This document shows positions 12,976-51,860 of a stretch of 64,000 bases of DNA, piece after piece. The stretch is from Eledone cirrhosa. Lineage: Eukaryota. The DNA is taken from positions 111,104,001-111,168,000 of the forward strand of contig OZ024743.1 in assembly GCA_964016885.1 (NCBI GenBank), written 5' to 3'. The notes below the pieces were generated by a model. It was not told the origin of the DNA. It worked only from the letters and a program-made list of their open reading frames with translations, and did not search any database. Every line of letters starts with the position of its first letter. Within the stretch, counting starts at the first letter, position 1. A program made the translations under genes and the position numbers.

Positions 12976-13783
12976 GAATAAAATAATAAAACGTAATTAG
13001 ACTCTAATTACGTTTTAGGATCTCTACTGTAAGTGCAATTATGAGAGATTTAGATACAAATTAGCTGTGTGCCTGAAAAATGAACAACAATAAAACGGAG
13101 ATTAATTTATGGTTTGACAGATAAATGCTTGTAGTAGATATTTCGCCTGTTGTATTATCCTAGTGAGATTGATGGAGGGAGTGTATAGAGATTTATAGTT
13201 CTATGGTAGCTGGTATTAAGTGAAATTGTGGATTCAGTATGTTAAGGTTTAGGTGGTTTAGTCCAGATTTTGGGATTGCTGGTTCGAATCATGGAGGGTG
13301 AAGTTTCGTAACATCAAAATACAAAATAGCGCATAATTAAAACAACAACATCAATAATAAAACATGCATGGTAAATAGATAGAGAACGTGGCGAATAAAA
13401 TCTAGGATAGGATACATTGAAATGATAATAATAATAAGAAGAAAATAAGAGTTACAAAGGAGTATAAAAGTAATAAAATAATGTACTTAGAATTAAGTTC
13501 GTATATAAGTGTTCATGGGTGCTAATATAAGATATGTAGATAAAATTGTGTGGTCCGAAAGAATGAACAACAGTAAAGACGAGATTAATTCATGGACTGT
13601 CAAGATAATTGATAACTATTTGTAGTAGACAATGTGCCTGCTGTACTATCTTGATTGTATTGATGGAGGGAGGTTGGAAGAGGTTTACAGAAATGTATGG
13701 TTCTCAAGTAGCTGTGTGAGAGTGAGGATTTCATACGTTAAAGTCTAAGTGGTTTTATTTTGGGAATTCCCAGTTCGAATCAC

Positions 13784-14170
13784 GGTGGTTTAAATTTCGT
13801 GAATTCAGTAGCAATCTTATGTCTGCAGAAAATGGATGTTTATATTTTGCTGTTAAGCAGCATCCTATCGTACCTTAAGATATGTAGCATTTCCAAATTA
13901 CAGAGCTCGCAGTGGGACATACCGTTGCAATAGGCTTTTGCTGCCGCTAATTTTGACCAGCTAATTTTGTATTCAAGGTTTTTGTCATTAAGCTGCCAGA
14001 TTTTATTGGCAAGCGTTGTAGAATTCGCCAGTGCACGGTTCCTCATGGAGTGTCTGTGGACATACCACTTTTTTTAAAATTCCTCCTCTGTGGATCCTAT
14101 GTTGTGCCAAGGGGAATTGCCTGAATTTACAGTACACAGGTACACCAAGCTAGAATCCAGGCATCTATTC
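13784..14170 (-). pseudogene. PLE GIY-YIG endonuclease remnant
   Basis: CLDSSLVYLC...NIGST...HRHSMRNRALANSTTLANKIW...CELCNLE, with frameshifts. Homologous to 38787-39452. Confidence 0.85.
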
Positions 14171-15018
14171 CGTTTTACTTTTGTTCATTTTTCAGACCCA
14201 CAACTCATTGTATCTAAATCTCTCATAATTGCACTTACAGTAGATATCTTGCGATTCATAAATTATTATTTGGTTGAAAGAAATTAACTCATATATTGCA
14301 TAGTTTTTGAGAGATTATACCAATACAATAAATGAAATTGCTATTTATATTTTAACACCTATATGATTAAAGAAAATCACATACACACATATTTTTTGTC
14401 AGATAATTAAGAAAAGGACAGGATAATTTTGGAAATTTCCAGCTGTGAGTTGGAATTGAATAGGTTAAATATATCGCGTAGAGACATAAGTAATTACTGC
14501 TACAATTTTTATCAAGTATTTGTCGAAAATAGGAATTGTATTGAAAGTAGAATATTTAATGGATAGTTCAATTACCTCCCAACGCTTAGGGAAAGTATAT
14601 TATCAAAACATATTTGTAACCTAGAAAAGCACATGTAGTTGATGATTAACTTCTCATTTTCGTACGTTTTAACGTGTGTTTATCTTAGAACTTATATATA
14701 TATATCGCACTAAAGATTGGGCTAAAGAGGACACGTGGTAGAAAACATATATTTGCAGAAAATTCATGTTAATTTGTATACTGTCGAAATAATTACACCG
14801 AATTCAAGGGTCCTGATGTATTTAGTGAAATATTTTATCACATGAATATATTTCTCTTTCGGTTTGCATGTTTTATATGTATATATTTTATGGGAAGACC
14901 ATAATATACTTCTTTAAATGTAATTATTCATGCACGGAAGTCACCTAGACAGTAGCCCACATAAGTATATATCGACTTACGCACCTCCACACACACAAAC
15001 GTGCACATACAAAAACAG

Positions 15019-19532: not shown

Positions 19533-19962
19533 TATATATATATATGTGTGTGTGTGTGCAGAAATAGATGGTGAGAGAGAGAGAGACGGAGGAAAGAGAG
19601 AGCGGGAGAACAATAACAATTACTAAAAGAAACAATAACTACCGTCAAGACAAATGATAGACTAGTATTAAACTTACTTATGTTGTATTGTTCAGTGACA
19701 TCAAGTGATGAAAATAAAAATAGAATAGTCACTAATGTTATCTTTTATCGATTTTGACACCAGCTTTGCATTTTAAAACAGAATACCATTTCTATTTAAG
19801 GTATTTCAGGTATTTCAGGTAATTAAAATTGTGTGATACGTAAACTTCTTGATTCGATTCTGTGCAAATAAAAATTACCAATAGAGTAATAGACATAGGG
19901 GACAACATGCAGAAAACTATGTTATTTGGAATTATGTAATGATTCATTAAACACACACACAG

Positions 19963-21459: not shown

Positions 21460-23380
21460 TAAAATATTATAGAATATTTTAAGTTATAATTTCAAAATAA
21501 TAGTATGTTTAATAGATTTAGTATAGAAATTTATCCTACGTATATTTAACTCAACATTTTGAAAGGATAAACTTTCGAAAATAGGAGAAGCTATCAGAAC
21601 AATAAGAAAACAATAAAAAAATAAAAAAAATAAAAATTAAAAATAAGAAATAGGAAATAGGAAATATTTTCTCCTTTCAAGAGCTCTCAATATATTTCTC
21701 TAGAATAGTTTATTATATTTATATTTATTTATATTTAGGAAGAAAAGTTATTTTTACTTGAGTGTATAATCAGTCAAAAAAGATGAAGGAATCTAATGAT
21801 TTATCGACAGGTTTCATATATTAATAAAATTAATTAATTAATTGTATACTACATTTTAAATTTATATTTATATTAAACGTTGAGTTTAATCTATGTCTGC
21901 AGCAACTGAATAAATTATTCCTTGAGTTCAGGGAATTTTTGGTCTTTAATATAAAGAATATTTCCTCTCTACAAAGATCGCAATTTTCTGAAGAGGAGTT
22001 AAAAGGAGTAGCTTATGAAATAATATTCCAAATCATGAATATTCAACGTTCCCTAGTTTTAGGTCCCATAATAGGCTAGATAGAGAAGTTGAAGGTTTTT
22101 TTGTTTGGATCTCTAAAATAATTTTTATGATTATTGAAGCGGGATTTAAACTCTGTGGAAGTAGATCCCACATAATTAAATGAATTTAAATTAGTTTTTA
22201 CATGACAATTATATACTACATTTTTAGCTAAGCAATTGTTATTTAACGGACAGTTAGATTTATTTCTAGAGTTACATTTATCAGATTGAATATTGCTTGT
22301 GTTATTCTTGGTATTTTGTTTAGGTTTAAATTTCTATTATTAATTCTATTAATATTTTGCGCTAAATTTTTGGTGGAAGAATAAGTTAATTTTATAGTAT
22401 GTCAATTATAAGTTGAGTAATATCTATGTGTTCTAGGGAAGCATTTGTCAAGAGCTTTAAACAATAGTTTAGCAATAGGGGTTTTAATATTTAATGAGAA
22501 AGGAGAAGCGAACCATAATATGTTCTTAGTTCTATTTCTTTTTCGGCTTTCGGAATTAATATAAGGTTTTCTATTATAGTTGTTAAAATTGTTACCATAG
22601 TTAAAATTGTTACGATTATGGTTAGTTTTCGATGTATTTAATTTTATTTCTATACCCAGCTCTACCTAACGCTTCGTTGTAATAATGTGCTTTTTTATCA
22701 AATATATTCTTATTAGCTGAAATTCTCGAAATTCGTTCTTGTACACAGTTCACTATAGTATTTTTAACGCATCTGGGGTGATTAGATTTAAAATTGACGT
22801 AATTTAAGTTCTCATTTAGTTTGTGAAAAGGATAATGAAGACATGTGTTAAGATTTAGTGTTACATCTAGAAAATTTACTATTTTATGGTTATTCTCTAT
22901 TTCTACTTTTAGATTAAGGTAATGAAAAAATTGTATAATTTGTTTTCTTTTTCTATTTAGTTCACAGTTATTATTTTCTATAAAATATTATAGAATATTT
23001 TAAGTTATAACTTCAAAATAATAGTATGTTTAATGGATTTAGTATATAAATTTATCTTACGTATATTTAACTCAACATTTTGAAAGGATAAACTTTCGAA
23101 AATAGGAGAAGCTATCAGAACAATAAGAAAACAATAAAAAAATAAAAAAAATAAAAATTAAAAATAAGAAATAGGAAATATTTTCTCCTTTCAAGAGCTC
23201 TCAATATATTTCTCTAGAATAGTTTATTATATTTATATTTATTTATATTTAGGAAGAAAAGTTATTTTTACTTGAGTGTATAATCAGTCAAAAAAGATGA
23301 AGGAATCTAATGATTTATCGACAGGTTTCATATATTAATAAAATTAATTAATTAATTGTATACTACATTTTAAATTTATA
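21460..23380 (-). mobile_element. Hydra-clade-like PLE remnant (RT C-terminus/thumb + GIY-YIG) between ~400-bp direct repeats
   Basis: Minus-strand translation gives VNFLDVTLNL, YVNFKSNHP, IIWFASPFS and CPLNNNCLAKNVVYNC...YVGST.TEFKSRFNNH. Direct repeats at 21460-21866 and 22981-23380. Confidence 0.85.
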
Positions 23381-32253: not shown

Positions 32254-32429
32254 AAAGAGATTGTAGTAAGATACTAGGTGGACCATGATGTACCCGAGTA
32301 CTCGATACTTTGGGTAGTAGAGTGGGTAATATGAATAGATTCAGGGCCCCGACGGCTCAGCTCCGGCCGTATCGACATCTAGTTGTTGAAACGGCCGGAT
32401 CTCAGCCGTTGGGGCCCTGAATCATTTCA
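32254..32429. mobile_element. Diverged family B fold-back mini-element
   Basis: GGGTAGTAGAGTGGGTAAT and CCCCGACGGCT are shared with 2784-3120. Inverted arm at ~32385-32429. (TA)n on both sides. Confidence 0.75.
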
Positions 32430-34067
32430 TATATATATTTATTCTTCGGGCCCTAAAACCAGGCAATATCTAAATAATCTCTTGTACCCTACGACAATAA
32501 GATCATAACATAAACATTGAGTTTTATAACCTGAACATTGACATGTTCTATAGATTTGCTTAGCAGATGCTAGTCACTACATTAGGTGACTAAACATTTT
32601 CCTTACCTGGAAATAAAGAAGAATATATCGTCATTTGTATACGTTACACTATTAATTGCACCAACACAATGTTTTTATTAATCATTAAATACACCATTTA
32701 TATTGTTCATTGATATTACGTTATGCTTGCAACGTTCCATATTCTTGTGACTAAAGTTTAGATGAATGAAAAAAAAACAATAATTGCATTGTTTACATTC
32801 CTTGGTATCGATTTGCTTGCATAGACAAGACTTGTGGCAGTAAAGTGAAATACTTGTGACGTCGATTTGAATTGTTTCACTTAAAGCGTCAACATTAATA
32901 CATGATTATATTTTCCACAGTATATCAGGATAAATCTTACTGGAGAATGGTAATTGTTTACGTGTATTCACATCGGTATTATGGTATGGATGAATTATTA
33001 GCTTAAACTGATGTCGGAAGGACGCCGTCTTGATATAAGCCGTGTCTTCAGCATTTTGAACCCTGTGGATACCATCAACTTTCGAAAACTAAACACACCC
33101 CATTTCCTCCATGAAGGGCATTGGTAGATGAGAAAGATATATAGGAAGAATAGAAGCCAGTAGTGAATTAGAGCTACTAATATCGACGTCTAAATGATTA
33201 AGAGCAAAATAGACTTCTCCTGAATTTGATTTCAAATGGAGAGATGGACCGGGATAAATGTTGGAAAGACATCTGTAGAACACTATAAGAACTCTTTCAA
33301 TTTGCCAGCTCTCCCCACATAAGTACTTAACTGTTGATATTATTGATAAATATACGCTTGCTTGTCAACATTTTAAAATAGGTTCTTTTAATATATTAGA
33401 TGATTTTTCTCAGTGAAAGAGAAACATTTAAAGAACGAATGAGAATCCCTCCTAACGCAATTGCTATACCTAAAATTAATATATTGACTTTCTACAGATG
33501 CTACCATTCGTTTACACAACAGAAAATGAATAAATAAATAAATAAATTGATTAATATAATTCAAACTTCAACATTAAATTAGACATCAGAAAATTATCTA
33601 TAAATGGGAACAGCCAATTTACATATATCTGTTAGCAAATCTAGGCATGAATAACCACACACACGCACCCCCCACCCCCCACGCACGCGCGCGCGCGCAC
33701 ACACACACACACAAACACACGAGAAGATAAACAAATCAATGTTTCAAAAGCATGGCGTTTTAGAACCAATTTCTAATGATTCAGACTGAGATTGATTCAC
33801 CAAAAGTATTTTCTTTTTTATACTCTCATATATTTTCTAAATTTCTATTTCTATTTTTATTTTAAATATAACTTAGACGAAGATAGCCTGCACCCTACCC
33901 CTCGATTGATACCTTCTTATCATTTGTATCATATTCATAATTGTATTTTTATGAATTTGTTACGTCCTCATTCTTTTATACATCATATTATCTGCAATTC
34001 TATCTGAGATGCTGACAAAATAAAACTACATACACATACACAAAGACACACACAAAACACACACACA

Positions 34068-35215: not shown

Positions 35216-35282
<67 letters not shown>

Positions 35283-35346
35283 TATGGTGTGGTGTGGTGT
35301 GGTGTGGTGTGGTGTGGTATGGTGTGGTGTGGTGTGGTGTGTGTGG

Positions 35347-37429: not shown

Positions 37430-37535
37430 TATTTCTGGCAATATTATTACAACAATATGACCCTCCCCAAGTATAACAATATTTGTATCGACACACGATT
37501 TCATATCAAAAACCTCGCAAAACAAAATCATTGCC

Positions 37536-37538: not shown

Positions 37539-37596
<58 letters not shown>

Positions 37597-37822
37597 GGGG
37601 TAACAAGTAATAGTTATATCCAGTCACCTTAGGTGTAGTCCAGTTATGGTATTCCGGGTAGTGGATGATATCAACGCTAGGCTTGGTTTGACTCAACAAG
37701 GCGTATTCATAGTGATGCTGCGAGTATGCTGTAATTCCTATGTTGTAAACACTTGGAGTAATAATAAATCAGGAAAGAAGATTGACATGGTTTGCAATAC
37801 AAAAAAAGGTTTTTAATCTCAT

Positions 37823-37930
37823 TGCTGACAATTGTTTCTCTGAACTGGTAGGTCTAGAGATGGCTATTCGCTTGTTTTCACGTTACTCGATCGCCAATAC
37901 AAAATTATAACCAGTCAGTTCTTCGGAGCA
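37823..37930 (-). ncRNA. Type I hammerhead ribozyme with 81-nt stem II domain
   Basis: TGCT-CCGAAGA-ACTGACTGG...CCAGTTCAGA-GAAAC-AATT-GTC-AGCA, followed by ATTAAA. Confidence 0.75.
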
Positions 37931-38786
37931 TGCGAGAATGAAGAGAATATACAGGCATAAATGGAATATACAGGCTACTATATGAAGTAGTAATGGCATT
38001 CAGTTAGAACAATTACAACAATTACAACAATGCTAGTAATAAATAATTTGAGGAGACCCTGACATTACATTAGGTGGGGGGTATAGTGTATCTAAGATTT
38101 CGGCGTGTAAAACTAGCTGACATGAAGCAGAAGTATAAGTTTGGCATGTCGTAGGGTGTATTGTATTTTAAAGATAAGCCGGTGTTTATCACCAATATAG
38201 GTCAGGTGGCCGTAATGTTCAGTATTTATCTGACCGACGAAGTATTTATCATTGAGTAGAATTTGTGTGGTCTACATTAGATGAGAATACAGTCTTTCTT
38301 TTCATCTTCAATAACATACATGTATGGGACAACGCTGTCAAAGCTAAATAGTGGGCGAGTTAATACAGAGGTTAAGGAGGTAATACATATATATATATAC
38401 ATATATATATACATATATATATATATATACATACATACACACACACATATATATACACACGCATGTGTACATAGACACATACATACACATCAATATACAC
38501 CCGTACAAATACATACATATATGCAAAGAGATAAACATGCTGACTGAAATTATTGCAAAAGGAAGGTAAAGTTACATTGTAGTAGTGATTTGAGAAATTC
38601 TTGGATTTAGGATCAAGTGATGGCAGCAGCTGAGAAGGAATAAGTTTATGGGTTGATGAGGTACTTGCAGACATTTGTGTGGTAAAGACTTGTGAAGGCT
38701 AGATTGTACTTAATGAGTATATTTCTGTGGTGATTTATGCAGGGTAGTGGGTATCCTAGTTTAAAGTTATGTTGTGTTGGTTCGAT

Positions 38787-39452
38787 TCACGGAGGTTTGA
38801 ATCTTATGAATTTAGTGGCAATTCTATGTCTGCAGAAGATAGATCTTTCTAACTTATTGTTAAGTAGCCTTTTAACATTTTTGAGGATATACATTAGTTC
38901 TAGATCACATAGCCCGCAGTGGGACATACCTGTACTATAGGTTTTAGCAGTCGACAACTTCGACCAGTTAATGCTGTATTTAGTGCTGCTGTCCTTCAGA
39001 TCCCATATTTTTTTGGCGAGGGTTGTGGAACCCATAAGTGCACGGTTTTTCATTGAGTGCCTGTGCACATACCATCTTTTTTTAAAAGAACCCGCGGTGG
39101 ATCCTATGTAATTCCAGGTGCAGTTATCCGAGTTGACCGTGCACATGTATACTAGGCTCGAATCGAGACATCTGTTCGCCAATGGGCACCTATCTGGTAG
39201 ATGACAATTACAGTGTGAGGCGCTATTTTGTGCAGCTTCTACACTCCTGTTTAGTACTCTGTTATAAGTGGGTTGTGATATATGCCCATTGGGGTTTTGC
39301 TGTTGCGCGTCTGTATGCCCTTGCGGTTGTGATGTTGTGATGTGTTTATGCTTATAATTTGGTGCTACGTTATGCATAGGTGCGGTTGATTTACTAGAGA
39401 TATTTCTGTGGTTGATCCTGCGTATGTGTGATTCCATATTTGCTGCTTCCAA
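38787..39452 (-). pseudogene. PLE linker + GIY-YIG endonuclease (uninterrupted C-terminal ORF fragment)
   Basis: CNCHLPDRCPL, LVYMC...YIGSTAGSFKKRW..H, CGLCDLE, LNNKLE...CRH. Confidence 0.92.
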
Positions 39453-39732
39453 GTATGAAAGTGTTATGGTAAATCTATTGAGTATTTTGTGATATCTATG
39501 TGAGATAGGGAAGTGTTTATCTATAAGATTAAAGAATGTCGAGGGCAGTCTATTTTTTATAGAGGAGCATGTCAGCTAGTTTTACACGCTAGTTATTTTA
39601 CACGCTAGTTTTTTTACACGCTAGTTTTAATGTCAGCTAGTTTTAAACTATTTTTCACTGTGAACAATTTGTCAGCATTTTCTTTTCCGTTTACCAATAT
39701 ATCTTGACTTGTGTGTTACACCTCCATTCTTT

Positions 39733-39802
<70 letters not shown>

Positions 39803-41075: not shown

Positions 41076-41442
41076 GGTGCCAATCGTATATGTAATATAG
41101 AATATGCTTCAATCAATCCCGGTTGGAGCAGTATAAATGAAGTAATTCCGTCGGAAAAGTTCAGGAAAAAAGAGTGCTCTATGTAGGTAACAGAGTTTAA
41201 TAGTTATGTAATAAACAACATAAGGCAATTATTTCAGTTACCAGTGGTTTCTTAAAAGCAAAAAAATTTTGCTTTCAATCATCAGAATGAAAGAAACCTG
41301 CCGTATTTATTGACGTTGGATTTTAAAATCCAACGTCAATAAATACGCCAGGATTCTTTCATTCTGATGATTGAAAGCAACATTTTTTTGCTTTTAAGAA
41401 ACCACTGGTAAATGAAATAATTGCCTTACGTTGTTTATTACA

Positions 41443-41449
<7 letters not shown>
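41076..41449. mobile_element. Family D element: spacer-less 250-bp palindrome (41200-41449) with two divergent hammerheads
   Basis: Symmetry centre GGATTTT|AAAATCC at 41324/41325. Both ends lie in (TA)n. Confidence 0.85.
41357..41417 (+). ncRNA. Apparently intact type I hammerhead ribozyme (twin at 41232-41292, minus strand)
   Basis: TTTCATT-CTGATGA-TTGAAAGCAA(7 nt)TTGCTTTTAA-GAAACC-ACT-GGTA-AATGAAA. All core nucleotides are present and the cleavage triplet is GUA. Confidence 0.88.
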
Positions 41450-49482: not shown

Positions 49483-51600
49483 AAGATCAAAAGATGGTTA
49501 AATGAGTTCCATGTATTTTATTATGCGCATTTCAAAAACAGATATCATCATGCAATAACATTTGTGTTTTCATCAGATAAAATAGGAGGACATGATATGA
49601 AGGTTAAAAACACTTGTGGATAGTGCAGTTTTAAATCAACATATGAAAAGTAGTTTTAGATTGATGTGTGATATTGGGGAAAAAAACTTTTTGAGGGGGG
49701 GGGGTGATTAAAAAGAGGAGGAGATGAGAGTAAAAAGTGGAGGAGGATGAGTATAATGAGGAAGGATGAGATAGGAGGAGAGATGGCTGATAGAGAGAGA
49801 GATAGCTTTTATAACTGAGAAAAATATATTGTTCTACATAGAGAGGTTGAAAAACCGTTGGAAGATAATGTATAAATTAAAAGAATTTGAAAATTAACGA
49901 AGAGAAAAATAATGTAAAGTTAAGGTTTGTATATTGAAGGATTTAATAATATGCGCGATGAAAAGAAATTGTTAATATGTATTGAGAATAATATTTAAGG
50001 GTTTAATATGTGCGATGGAAAGAAAATGTTAATATGTATTAAGAATGATTTTAAGGGTTTAATAATATGTGCGATAGAAAGAAAATGTTAATATGTATTA
50101 AGAATAATATTTAAGGGTTTAATAATATGTGCGATGGAAAGAAAATGTTGATATGTATTATAAAAAAAAACAGAAGTAATGTAAGTAAGGATATATTGTG
50201 AGATGAGCATGAATAAGTTAGATGAAAGTGAGAAAAAAATAATGAATAGAGGATGAATAATCTAACGTCAAAAAAATGTTTATGTTTACGAAGGATTTTT
50301 TCAAGGTGATATAAAGTAAGAATATAGTGTATTGTGTAATAATTGTTTCTATGTTAGGCACAGTGAGAAAAGGTACAGATTAGGGGTTAGAAATTAAAAG
50401 AAAAAGAAAAGAAAAGGAAAAGGAAGAAAGGGAAATGATGAATAGGAATGATATAGAATATGATAAATAACTTTAAATAAGGTAGAAAGATGGGTATATT
50501 TTTAAAGAAGTATATATATATATATGTGCCTTTGAGAAAATGATTCTGAATTGATAAAGTTTAAGATATTAGCTGTATACTTTATGGAAAGTTCTGAGGA
50601 ATTTATGCAAGCAGATAGAAAACAAGTCAGTGCGTCTATTTGTTATAGAATCTAAATTAGATATAATGGTAAAGTTTTCATTCAGACAGAGATTGCAAGT
50701 CTTGGATAGAGAACTGTTCAAGTATGTAGAAGCAGGGGAAAACTTTTTCCAAGAGATGTTATATTTAATATGTTTGTCTTTCAAGGACCATATGAGTTCT
50801 GAGAGAGCCGTGTTGGTTCTTTTAAGTTTATATTTAAAAGACGAATGATCATTATAAAGACGAGCTTTAAAGGAGGTGGAAGTGGAGCCAAAATAGGTGA
50901 AGGAATTGGTGTCAGTTATAACTTTACATTCGTAAATTAAGTTTGTATCAAGACAATGGTTGTTGATAGGACATTTATTTTTAGCAGGACAATTGCAATT
51001 GCGATTAGAGAGATTATTAACGAGTGACCTAGTGTTATCTATAGAAGGAATTGGATTGGAGAAGTTATTTGCGATAGGAATAATAGTTTCTTGATTTAGA
51101 ATGGGATTAAGAACATTTAGCGAAGCTGTGTTTGACGTTGTATTTGGGTTTGCAGAAATTAGCCTAGGGTTTACAATGACGTCGGGAATACTATTACTAT
51201 TATTATGATATTCAGTGTTGGAAGGAAGATATTTAGTATTTAGTATTTTATTGTTGTTTAGAGATAATGTTGGAAATGTTGGAGGATGTCGAATAGGAAA
51301 ATGTTATAGTGTGTTTGTTAAATATTTTACTATAGATATGTGAGGGAGGGAAGCATTTATTTAAGGCACTAAAGAATAATTTAGGAATATTATTATTAAT
51401 AGAGATGGAGAAAGGAGCATTATACCAGATTATGTTTTTGTATCTAGGTCTTTTATTAAAGTTATTGGAATGATCATGATTAATTATTCTACTGTAAGAT
51501 TTTCTAGAATTTGTTTCTTTATTATATTTGATTTTATCAGGATAGCGCGTTATTATAGTAATTGGCGTTAGCATCGAAGATGTTTTTATTAGAAGAATTA
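49483..51600 (-). mobile_element. Hydra-clade-like PLE, 5'-truncated
   Basis: IIWYNAPFS...KCFP..H..SKIFN...SYS, CNCPAKNKCPINNHCL, YFGSTSTSFKAR, CNLCLNE...CLH. Four ~57-bp tandem repeats in the 3' UTR (49945-50160). Confidence 0.88.
49514..49584 (-). ncRNA. Type I hammerhead ribozyme with extended stem II
   Basis: TATTTTAT-CTGATGA-AAACA...TGTTTTT-GAAAT-GCGC-ATA-ATAAAATA, giving an 8-bp stem I and a palindromic stem III. Confidence 0.78.
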
Positions 51601-51723
51601 GAAGAAGAAGAAGAAGAAGAAGAAGAAGAAGAAGAAGAAGAAGAAGAAGAAGAAGAAGAAGAAGAAGAAGAAGAAGAAGAAGAAGAAGAAGAAGAAGAAG
51701 AAGAAGAAGAAGAAGAAGAAGAA
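51601..51723. repeat. (GAA)n tract at the PLE 5' junction
   Basis: About 41 uninterrupted GAA units following TTAGAAGAATTA. Confidence 0.95.
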
Positions 51724-51860
51724 GGAGATGAGGTAGGTTGCGTCAGTCAGTTTTAATGAGAACAGTTGTTACAGATAGCTATATATAAGTAGGAGAATGT
51801 TTGTCATGTCGGTGTGTATGTGTAATATATATGTATATATATATATATATTATATATATA

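Follow-up and report, generated by a model that had tools for sequence, protein, structure and literature searches.

A patch of 78 bases fills the 5' truncation point of a minus-strand Penelope-like element (PLE) at positions 39568-39645 of the window, by which we mean the whole 64,000-nt stretch of Eledone cirrhosa contig OZ024743.1 that was analysed. The patch is built from repeated pieces of the element itself, which raises the question of how they were copied: by an RT that realigns on RNA, as telomerase does, or by synthesis on DNA while the insertion was being closed. Tandem and inverted PLE structures have been named an open mechanistic problem (PMC8557442). The template of this patch is non-repetitive and allows each switch to be mapped, and a PLE-rich genome is a ready dataset for such mapping. 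The element that carries the patch has the following parts.

37539..37594, no strand: pure (TA)n tract at the 3' end of the element, likely its target site.
37597..37958, minus strand: 3'-terminal pLTR-like region that shares 72% identity with 12214-12574 in a sister copy.
About 37819-37930, minus strand: type I hammerhead-like motif inside the pLTR-like region, its core degenerate and its stem II region 81 nt long.
38103..38124, minus strand: 22-nt template segment in the putative 3' UTR, 1.45 kb from the junction.
38383..38520, no strand: degenerate (TA)/(CA) microsatellite that separates the template segment from the ORF.
38787..39569, minus strand: 5'-truncated ORF covering the end of the RT thumb/linker and an endonuclease with CxCx5C, CxxC-x2-E and LN..CxH.

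Hydra PLEs insert into (TA)n, and the endonuclease motifs of this clade have been described (PMC8557442). By motifs that match this description, rather than by a tree, the host element probably belongs to the Hydra clade. (TA)n lies at the 3' end of both family copies, at 37539-37594 here and at 12192-12213 in the sister copy. A HMMER scan of a representative protein library returned 3964 relatives of the ORF, and a word-indexed set gave no longer protein homologues. The CxCx5C linker reads CNCHLPDRC in the ORF and occurs in 109 of 150 homologues; the CxxC and CxH around the conserved E and N read CGLCDLE and LNNKLERSIFCRH, with 144/150 and 107/150 homologues sharing them. Among the 12 homologues of at least 580 aa, YRDD was found in all, DKT in nine and RW[KR] in six, and the copy at 38787-39569 itself does not carry the RT core. 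Pfam gave no match on the ORF, GIY-YIG included, and no useful domain on six long homologues. A pattern search located the hammerhead-like motif in both family copies; the core carries a single substitution in either case, and a two-sequence fold supports the motif; the sister motif, at about 12434-12545 on the minus strand, also has an 81-nt stem II region. With Rfam, the two motifs matched no family at the gathering score, and a low score gave just microsatellite-driven miRNA matches. Four stretches (12108-12191, 37453-37530, 56122-56232 and 1390-1481) form one repeat family, which lies across the (TA)n from both PLE family copies.

The preliminary description placed the source of the patch in the element's own 3' UTR. 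This is a reasonable inference, as the template segment lies between the stop codon of the ORF (38787) and the pLTR-like region (37597-37958); the assignment rests on that position, with a microsatellite in between. The surrounding region, 37961-38382, has no second copy anywhere in the window and could not be aligned clearly with the sister copy (the score was reached by 3, 124 and 29 of 200 shuffles). The patch divides into five segments.

39568..39589, plus strand: segment 1, an exact inverted copy of template positions 1-22, with an overlap of at most 2 nt (CA) with the element.
39590-39605, plus strand: unit 2, TAGTTATTTTACACGC, 16 nt, template 10-22 plus three extra bases.
39606-39621, plus strand: unit 3, TAGTTTTTTTACACGC, 16 nt, template 10-22 plus three extra bases.
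39622-39629, plus strand: segment 4, TAGTTTTA, template 10-17, entered by a GC overlap.
39630-39645, plus strand: segment 5, ATGTCAGCTAGTTTTA, template 2-17, entered with no overlap.

Segment 1, CATGTCAGCTAGTTTTACACGC, is the exact reverse complement of 38103-38124, and the match ends at 22 nt on either side. This is well beyond chance: inverted matches to the masked element were at most 13 nt long in a control set of 1009 other windows of 100 nt, and 5000 dinucleotide-shuffled versions of the junction gave 15 nt at most. The 14-mer TGTCAGCTAGTTTT matches exactly at 38109(-), 39570(+) and 39631(+) and nowhere else in the window. When the 22-mer is numbered T1-T22 in the element sense, the filler runs T1-22, then two 16-nt versions of T10-22, followed by T10-17 and T2-17, with unit lengths of 13, 16, 16, 8 and 16 nt. 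The inverted 22-mer and the four partial copies behind it are thus present as first described, apart from one A in the division of the units. The GC reported at both ends of the reiterated unit also holds; it flanks the 13-nt template unit and provides a 2-nt overlap.

On its left side the block begins exactly at the end of ORF homology. The codon before the entry point encodes F, Y or W in 57/57 homologues bearing the motif (of 150 hits), and because this aligned residue excludes the observed base as native, the overlap at entry is at most 2 nt (CA). CATG was considered as a 4-nt palindromic primer and rejected on account of the same limit. On its right side the block runs into a short repeat, H, and then into a second (TA)n tract.

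39638..39650, no strand: 6-bp hairpin TAGTTT-T-AAACTA across the exit, covering both mismatches to the 61591 copy of H.
39643..39735, plus strand: right flank H, a short repeat with 57/61 nt identical to 61591-61651.
39736..39799, no strand: pure (TA)n tract that closes the structure on the right.

The filler shares TTA with H at its exit, as judged from one other H copy. The hairpin at this point is suggestive only, possibly of one more fold-back. Both H copies start at the same point, and an extension of 33 nt before the (TA)n is optional, present at 39.7 kb and lacking at 61.6 kb. H has neither an ORF nor a full hammerhead, and the window holds no copies beyond these two (39643-39735 and 61591-61651). 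H resembles the 3' half of the hammerhead-like motif (14/15 nt). We checked whether the block could be a fixed part of the H family, a refutation foreseen in the preliminary description; the sequence upstream of 61591 is unrelated and contains no such block. The block at 39568-39645 is a genuine integration scar, and a well-resolved one.

To assemble the whole filler out of sequence at the locus, at least seven events are needed. GC/GC overlaps are found at three of them, including the entries into units 2 and 3 (39590..39621), the restart from T17 to T2 has zero overlap, and the other non-GC switches overlap by 0-2 nt. Units 2 and 3 each differ by three edits from the 13-nt template unit and by one edit from each other. 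This likeness suggests copying of the previous copy, or a repeated slip in the T run, rather than faithful reuse of the template. The three GC/GC switches may represent one event followed by duplications.

The preliminary description saw in these switches a telomerase-like alignment region and a footprint of copy-realign-copy cycles. Several rounds of copying and realignment on element-derived sequence are supported, and the interpretation of the GC/GC overlap as a telomerase-like RNA cycle is not. One telomerase trait, an alignment region at both unit ends, is present (GC/GC, 2 nt, three switches). A fixed template boundary is absent: local structure at the template was not significant (fold z +0.96 as RNA, +0.65 as DNA), no boundary structure or helix was found beside it (172/200 shuffles fold as well), and in the RNA-templated direction copying stops at two places. 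Uniform repeats in one register are also lacking, with varied lengths and several registers, and the copy is inverted. The telomerase reading of the GC/GC-bounded filler is therefore weak. The orientation bears on the template as well. The first cDNA strand corresponds to the plus strand of the window, where the filler has RNA-sense sequence; being inverted, the filler had a DNA rather than an RNA template if the cDNA end was extended. An RNA template requires that the other strand be extended from the right and that a second RNA take part, because this stretch had already been copied. Neither the polymerase nor the copied strand can be read from a single junction, as the sequence keeps no record of the direction of synthesis.

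We favour, at a probability of roughly 55%, iterative DNA-templated snap-back synthesis on the cDNA during 5' end-joining. Reverse transcription of the Hydra-type PLE would have started at the (TA)n, produced about 1.97 kb of cDNA and stopped; here the anatomy is observed, and TPRT is taken from what is known of the family. The free cDNA 3' end would then have primed on its own earlier sequence 1.45 kb back, with at most 2 nt of pairing, and 22 nt would have been copied from what was presumably a DNA template. Release and repeated re-priming on the same stretch, or on a fresh copy of it, may have followed via GC/GC, via the T run and once with zero overlap, and one 16-nt unit may duplicate the other. 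Finally, TTA would have paired with the right-hand DNA end and the break would have been sealed, in an order of steps that we propose from the observed switch points. A non-processive, Pol theta-like end-joining enzyme could have served as the polymerase, or else the element RT acting on DNA.

Several traits of snap-back and SD-MMEJ junctions are present: an inverted copy of sequence from one side, several imperfect copies that overlap one another, and a short microhomology at the last join. The source of the filler lies within the part that had already been reverse transcribed, unlike in classic twin priming. In the usual twin-priming geometry, a single RNA does not supply an inverted piece that duplicates first-cDNA sequence. 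Both of the hardest-to-template bases are A on the plus strand, a weak fit to the A-rule (PMC4912351). The template, 1.45 kb off, is reachable only on single-stranded cDNA, so we speak of a snap-back-type filler rather than a proven Pol theta scar. Other observations count against snap-back synthesis. RNA-templated synthesis of the other strand yields identical letters. The Pol theta fillers cited below copy nearby sequence, whereas the distance here requires a long single-stranded cDNA. None of the five segments leaves a single 22-nt interval; three of their ends fall at position 22 and two at 1-2, a pattern not expected from simple random re-priming. The pure (TA)n on both flanks fits a second RT working from the right. 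Allowing duplication of the previous unit lowers the hand count from seven events to six, a saving of merely about one.

At 14169-14248 the sister copy carries 81 nt of its own 3' region in inverted form, 90% identical and without stutter. An inverted 5' piece is thus found in 2/2 family copies and a stuttered one in 1/2. A homologous origin of the sister inversion found no support in the UTRs of the two copies, which do not align, and the pair accordingly shows no programmed inversion site. The sister inversion (14169-14273) may reach about 105 nt, keeping sequence that was later replaced by a hairpin at 12987-13017. This perfect 15-bp hairpin stands beside a palindromic insert and is a fold-back scar at a non-PLE junction. 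A dispersed repeat of about 200 nt lies at 9947-10169 and at least eight related places, and a palindromic version of it at 12774-12990 has 17-nt direct repeat flanks. In a further Hydra-like PLE (6922-8196), four GCG-bounded units (8186-8279, within 8186-8282) consist of the element end, (TA)n and TT, and are followed by GCGTAC, so that the stutter appears to take in sequence from outside the element. We read them as DNA-level reiteration across a finished junction, if TT-GCG is flank. We count these units, the sister inversion and the hairpin in favour of snap-back synthesis.

Four non-microsatellite stutter arrays in the window passed our filter, two at PLE 5' junctions and two elsewhere. 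One of the latter, 3616-3764, is a nested array of 37-nt and 16-nt units with no PLE junction found nearby. At five of the seven PLE 5' junctions a tandem array of some kind is no more than 25 nt away, compared with 11% of background positions (p 3e-4), a post hoc and partly circular count, as the junctions were set by eye and often at array edges. The arrays concerned are the 39568-39645 block, a 23-nt unit, (GAA)46, (TGTGG)n and (TA)n; the one at the 58.7 kb element is probably the target itself. This proximity could point to the RT, and so counts against snap-back synthesis, and it merits a genome-wide look. The (GAA)46 at 51591-51728 and the (GT)n/(TGTGG)n at 35220-35345 directly adjoin the points where two other PLE copies are truncated at the 5' end. 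The PLE at 58692-60521 has RT and canonical GIY-YIG Pfam matches, and its 5' end joins a 575-nt (TA)n. At 21460-21860 and 22981-23370, the 3' region of a Hydra-like element is copied directly at its 5' junction, the tandem pLTR form. Head-to-head inverted structures occur by (TA)n at 2507-3123, 10443-11314, 32262-32432, 41200-41449, 55187-55859 and 56747-57612, the first of them with a small 9-nt stutter at its centre (3052-3073).

The same filler could also come from a PLE RT that reiterates on an RNA template from the opposite end, which we consider unlikely. Such a second RT would extend the minus strand from H, enter the 3' UTR via TAA and slip to GC repeatedly, and the end product would be joined head-to-head to the first cDNA; H would possibly be a fresh 93-nt cDNA of another family at the same (TA)n. 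The anatomy on the right suits this route. Element, filler and H together have pure (TA)n on either side, and the 33-nt extension of H recalls the optional 30-40 nt PLE tail (PMC8557442), so H may be a second cDNA of the same event. Further head-to-head inserts between (TA)n tracts are present in the window. The purified protein of a Poseidon PLE was able to cut and extend either strand and to begin at internal sites of the RNA in the absence of homology (PMC11167929). PLEs frequently carry inverted 5' pieces (PMC8557442, PMC3846280), and a 2-nt alignment region is known from rodent telomerase (PMC4993307). Just 4 of the 91 possible backward jumps of at least 8 nt in the 22-mer have a 2-nt overlap, a point in favour of the preliminary description. 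However, the need for a second RNA weighs on this route, as do units that are not faithful recopies, restart points that vary (one with zero overlap), the missing boundary helix, the bare structure of H in its two copies, and the unstuttered inversion of the sister copy at a non-alignable site. Hydra RTs are also described as lacking the IFD (PMC8557442), a further point against this route. The IFD is probably linked to repeat-addition processivity. That the PLE RT itself makes the stutters, with two RT complexes at both ends of the cut (TA)n, one with RNA of another family and the second reusing internal RNA via the 2-nt overlap before joining, is in our judgement doubtful.

Ordinary replication might instead have enlarged a simpler scar. 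One inversion-type junction made in three passes (segments 1, 4 and 5) would bring segments 1 and 4 together as a 10-nt direct repeat, GCTAGTTTTA, at a spacing of 13 nt, and replication slippage would then yield units 2 and 3. The +3 length common to both units suits this scheme, and two of the four non-microsatellite stutter arrays (3616-3764 and 19793-19821) lie more than 3 kb from any PLE 5' junction used. Yet integration itself would still have to include the no-overlap restart and one or more GC realignments, and a jump from T4 to T7 is odd for replicative polymerases. Segments 1 and 5 match the template at 22/22 and 16/16 positions, which leaves little time for several later events, and we hold this history to be improbable. 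The confinement of all copied sequence to positions 1-22, with entries at 1 and 2 (0-2 nt overlap) and three exits at 22, would be natural if the template were a free fragment of about 22 nt bounded at both ends, such as an abortive cDNA or an antisense small RNA, with the cDNA end jumping onto its 3' end twice and running off its 5' end three times. In a rotifer, PLEs are reported to give rise to antisense small RNAs (PMC3846280). Later units that copy segment 1 explain the confinement equally, and the inverted piece of the sister copy is at least 81 nt, so a bounded fragment seems very improbable. It is scarcely credible that the block belongs as a fixed component to the consensus of some other element, or that it is an artefact of assembly. 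The full extent of H is uncertain and homopolymer length differences can be sequencing errors, but the sequence upstream of 61591-61651 is unrelated, the 14-mer lacks any further exact copy in the window, and the block starts where ORF homology ends.

The readings differ in their consequences. If the snap-back account is true, snap-back and end-joining fillers extend to PLEs, a modest result. If RT stutter were true genome-wide, a relative of telomerase would possess a primitive form of repeat addition, and PLE 5' ends would acquire new tandem repeats from it; an RT that reuses its RNA would bear on the origin of telomerase repeat addition and on the simple-repeat richness of some genomes.

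A literature search of partial coverage returned no report of a reiterated inverted filler at a PLE 5' junction, and the accessible parts of PMC13486585, PMC9977147 and 10.64898/2026.07.22.740005 contain nothing on stutters. Related junctions are known from several systems. R2 insertions include a 'snap-back' junction class in which, as proposed here, the cDNA 3' end is extended with reverse-complemented cDNA sequence before it is joined to the target (PMC11331408). In contrast, the present case is a natural PLE insertion with a template 1.45 kb off and five overlapping copies instead of one. In Drosophila, end-joining produces complex insertions with multiple overlapping copies through repeated rounds of synthesis (PMC2943611, PMC2895639), and Pol theta alternates between untemplated, snap-back and in-trans modes (PMC4912351). 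These SD-MMEJ and Pol theta products resemble the filler in that several direct and inverted copies, imperfect and overlapping, are joined with little or no overlap at the switches, bases are added, and a short microhomology closes the join; the templates in the published cases, as far as these sources describe them, are nearby flanks of the break, and the enzyme here is putative.

PLEs themselves often carry inverted 5' copies (PMC8557442, PMC3846280). Inverted 5'-truncated copies or pLTRs of this kind resemble our junction in their head-to-head inverted sequence at the 5' end and their microsatellite target, and the sister copy at 14169-14248 represents the plain form in the window. The patch differs in that only 22 nt were inverted; these came from within the 3' UTR and not from the end of the pLTR, and they were reiterated. 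L1 twin priming and templated insertions have also been described, with inverted element sequence at the 5' junction and short overlaps at both joins (PMC11702581). The inverted piece here duplicates first-cDNA sequence, and a single RNA could not provide it in the usual manner. Telomerase repeat addition has in common with the patch a short unit with the same flanking bases in several copies, and PLE RTs are relatives of TERT. However, telomerase relies on a boundary element and a fixed register (PMC4993307), whereas the patch has no fixed boundary element, its units vary over several registers, and an RNA template is putative. The filler looks like a known kind of end-joining scar rather than a case of telomerase-like behaviour.
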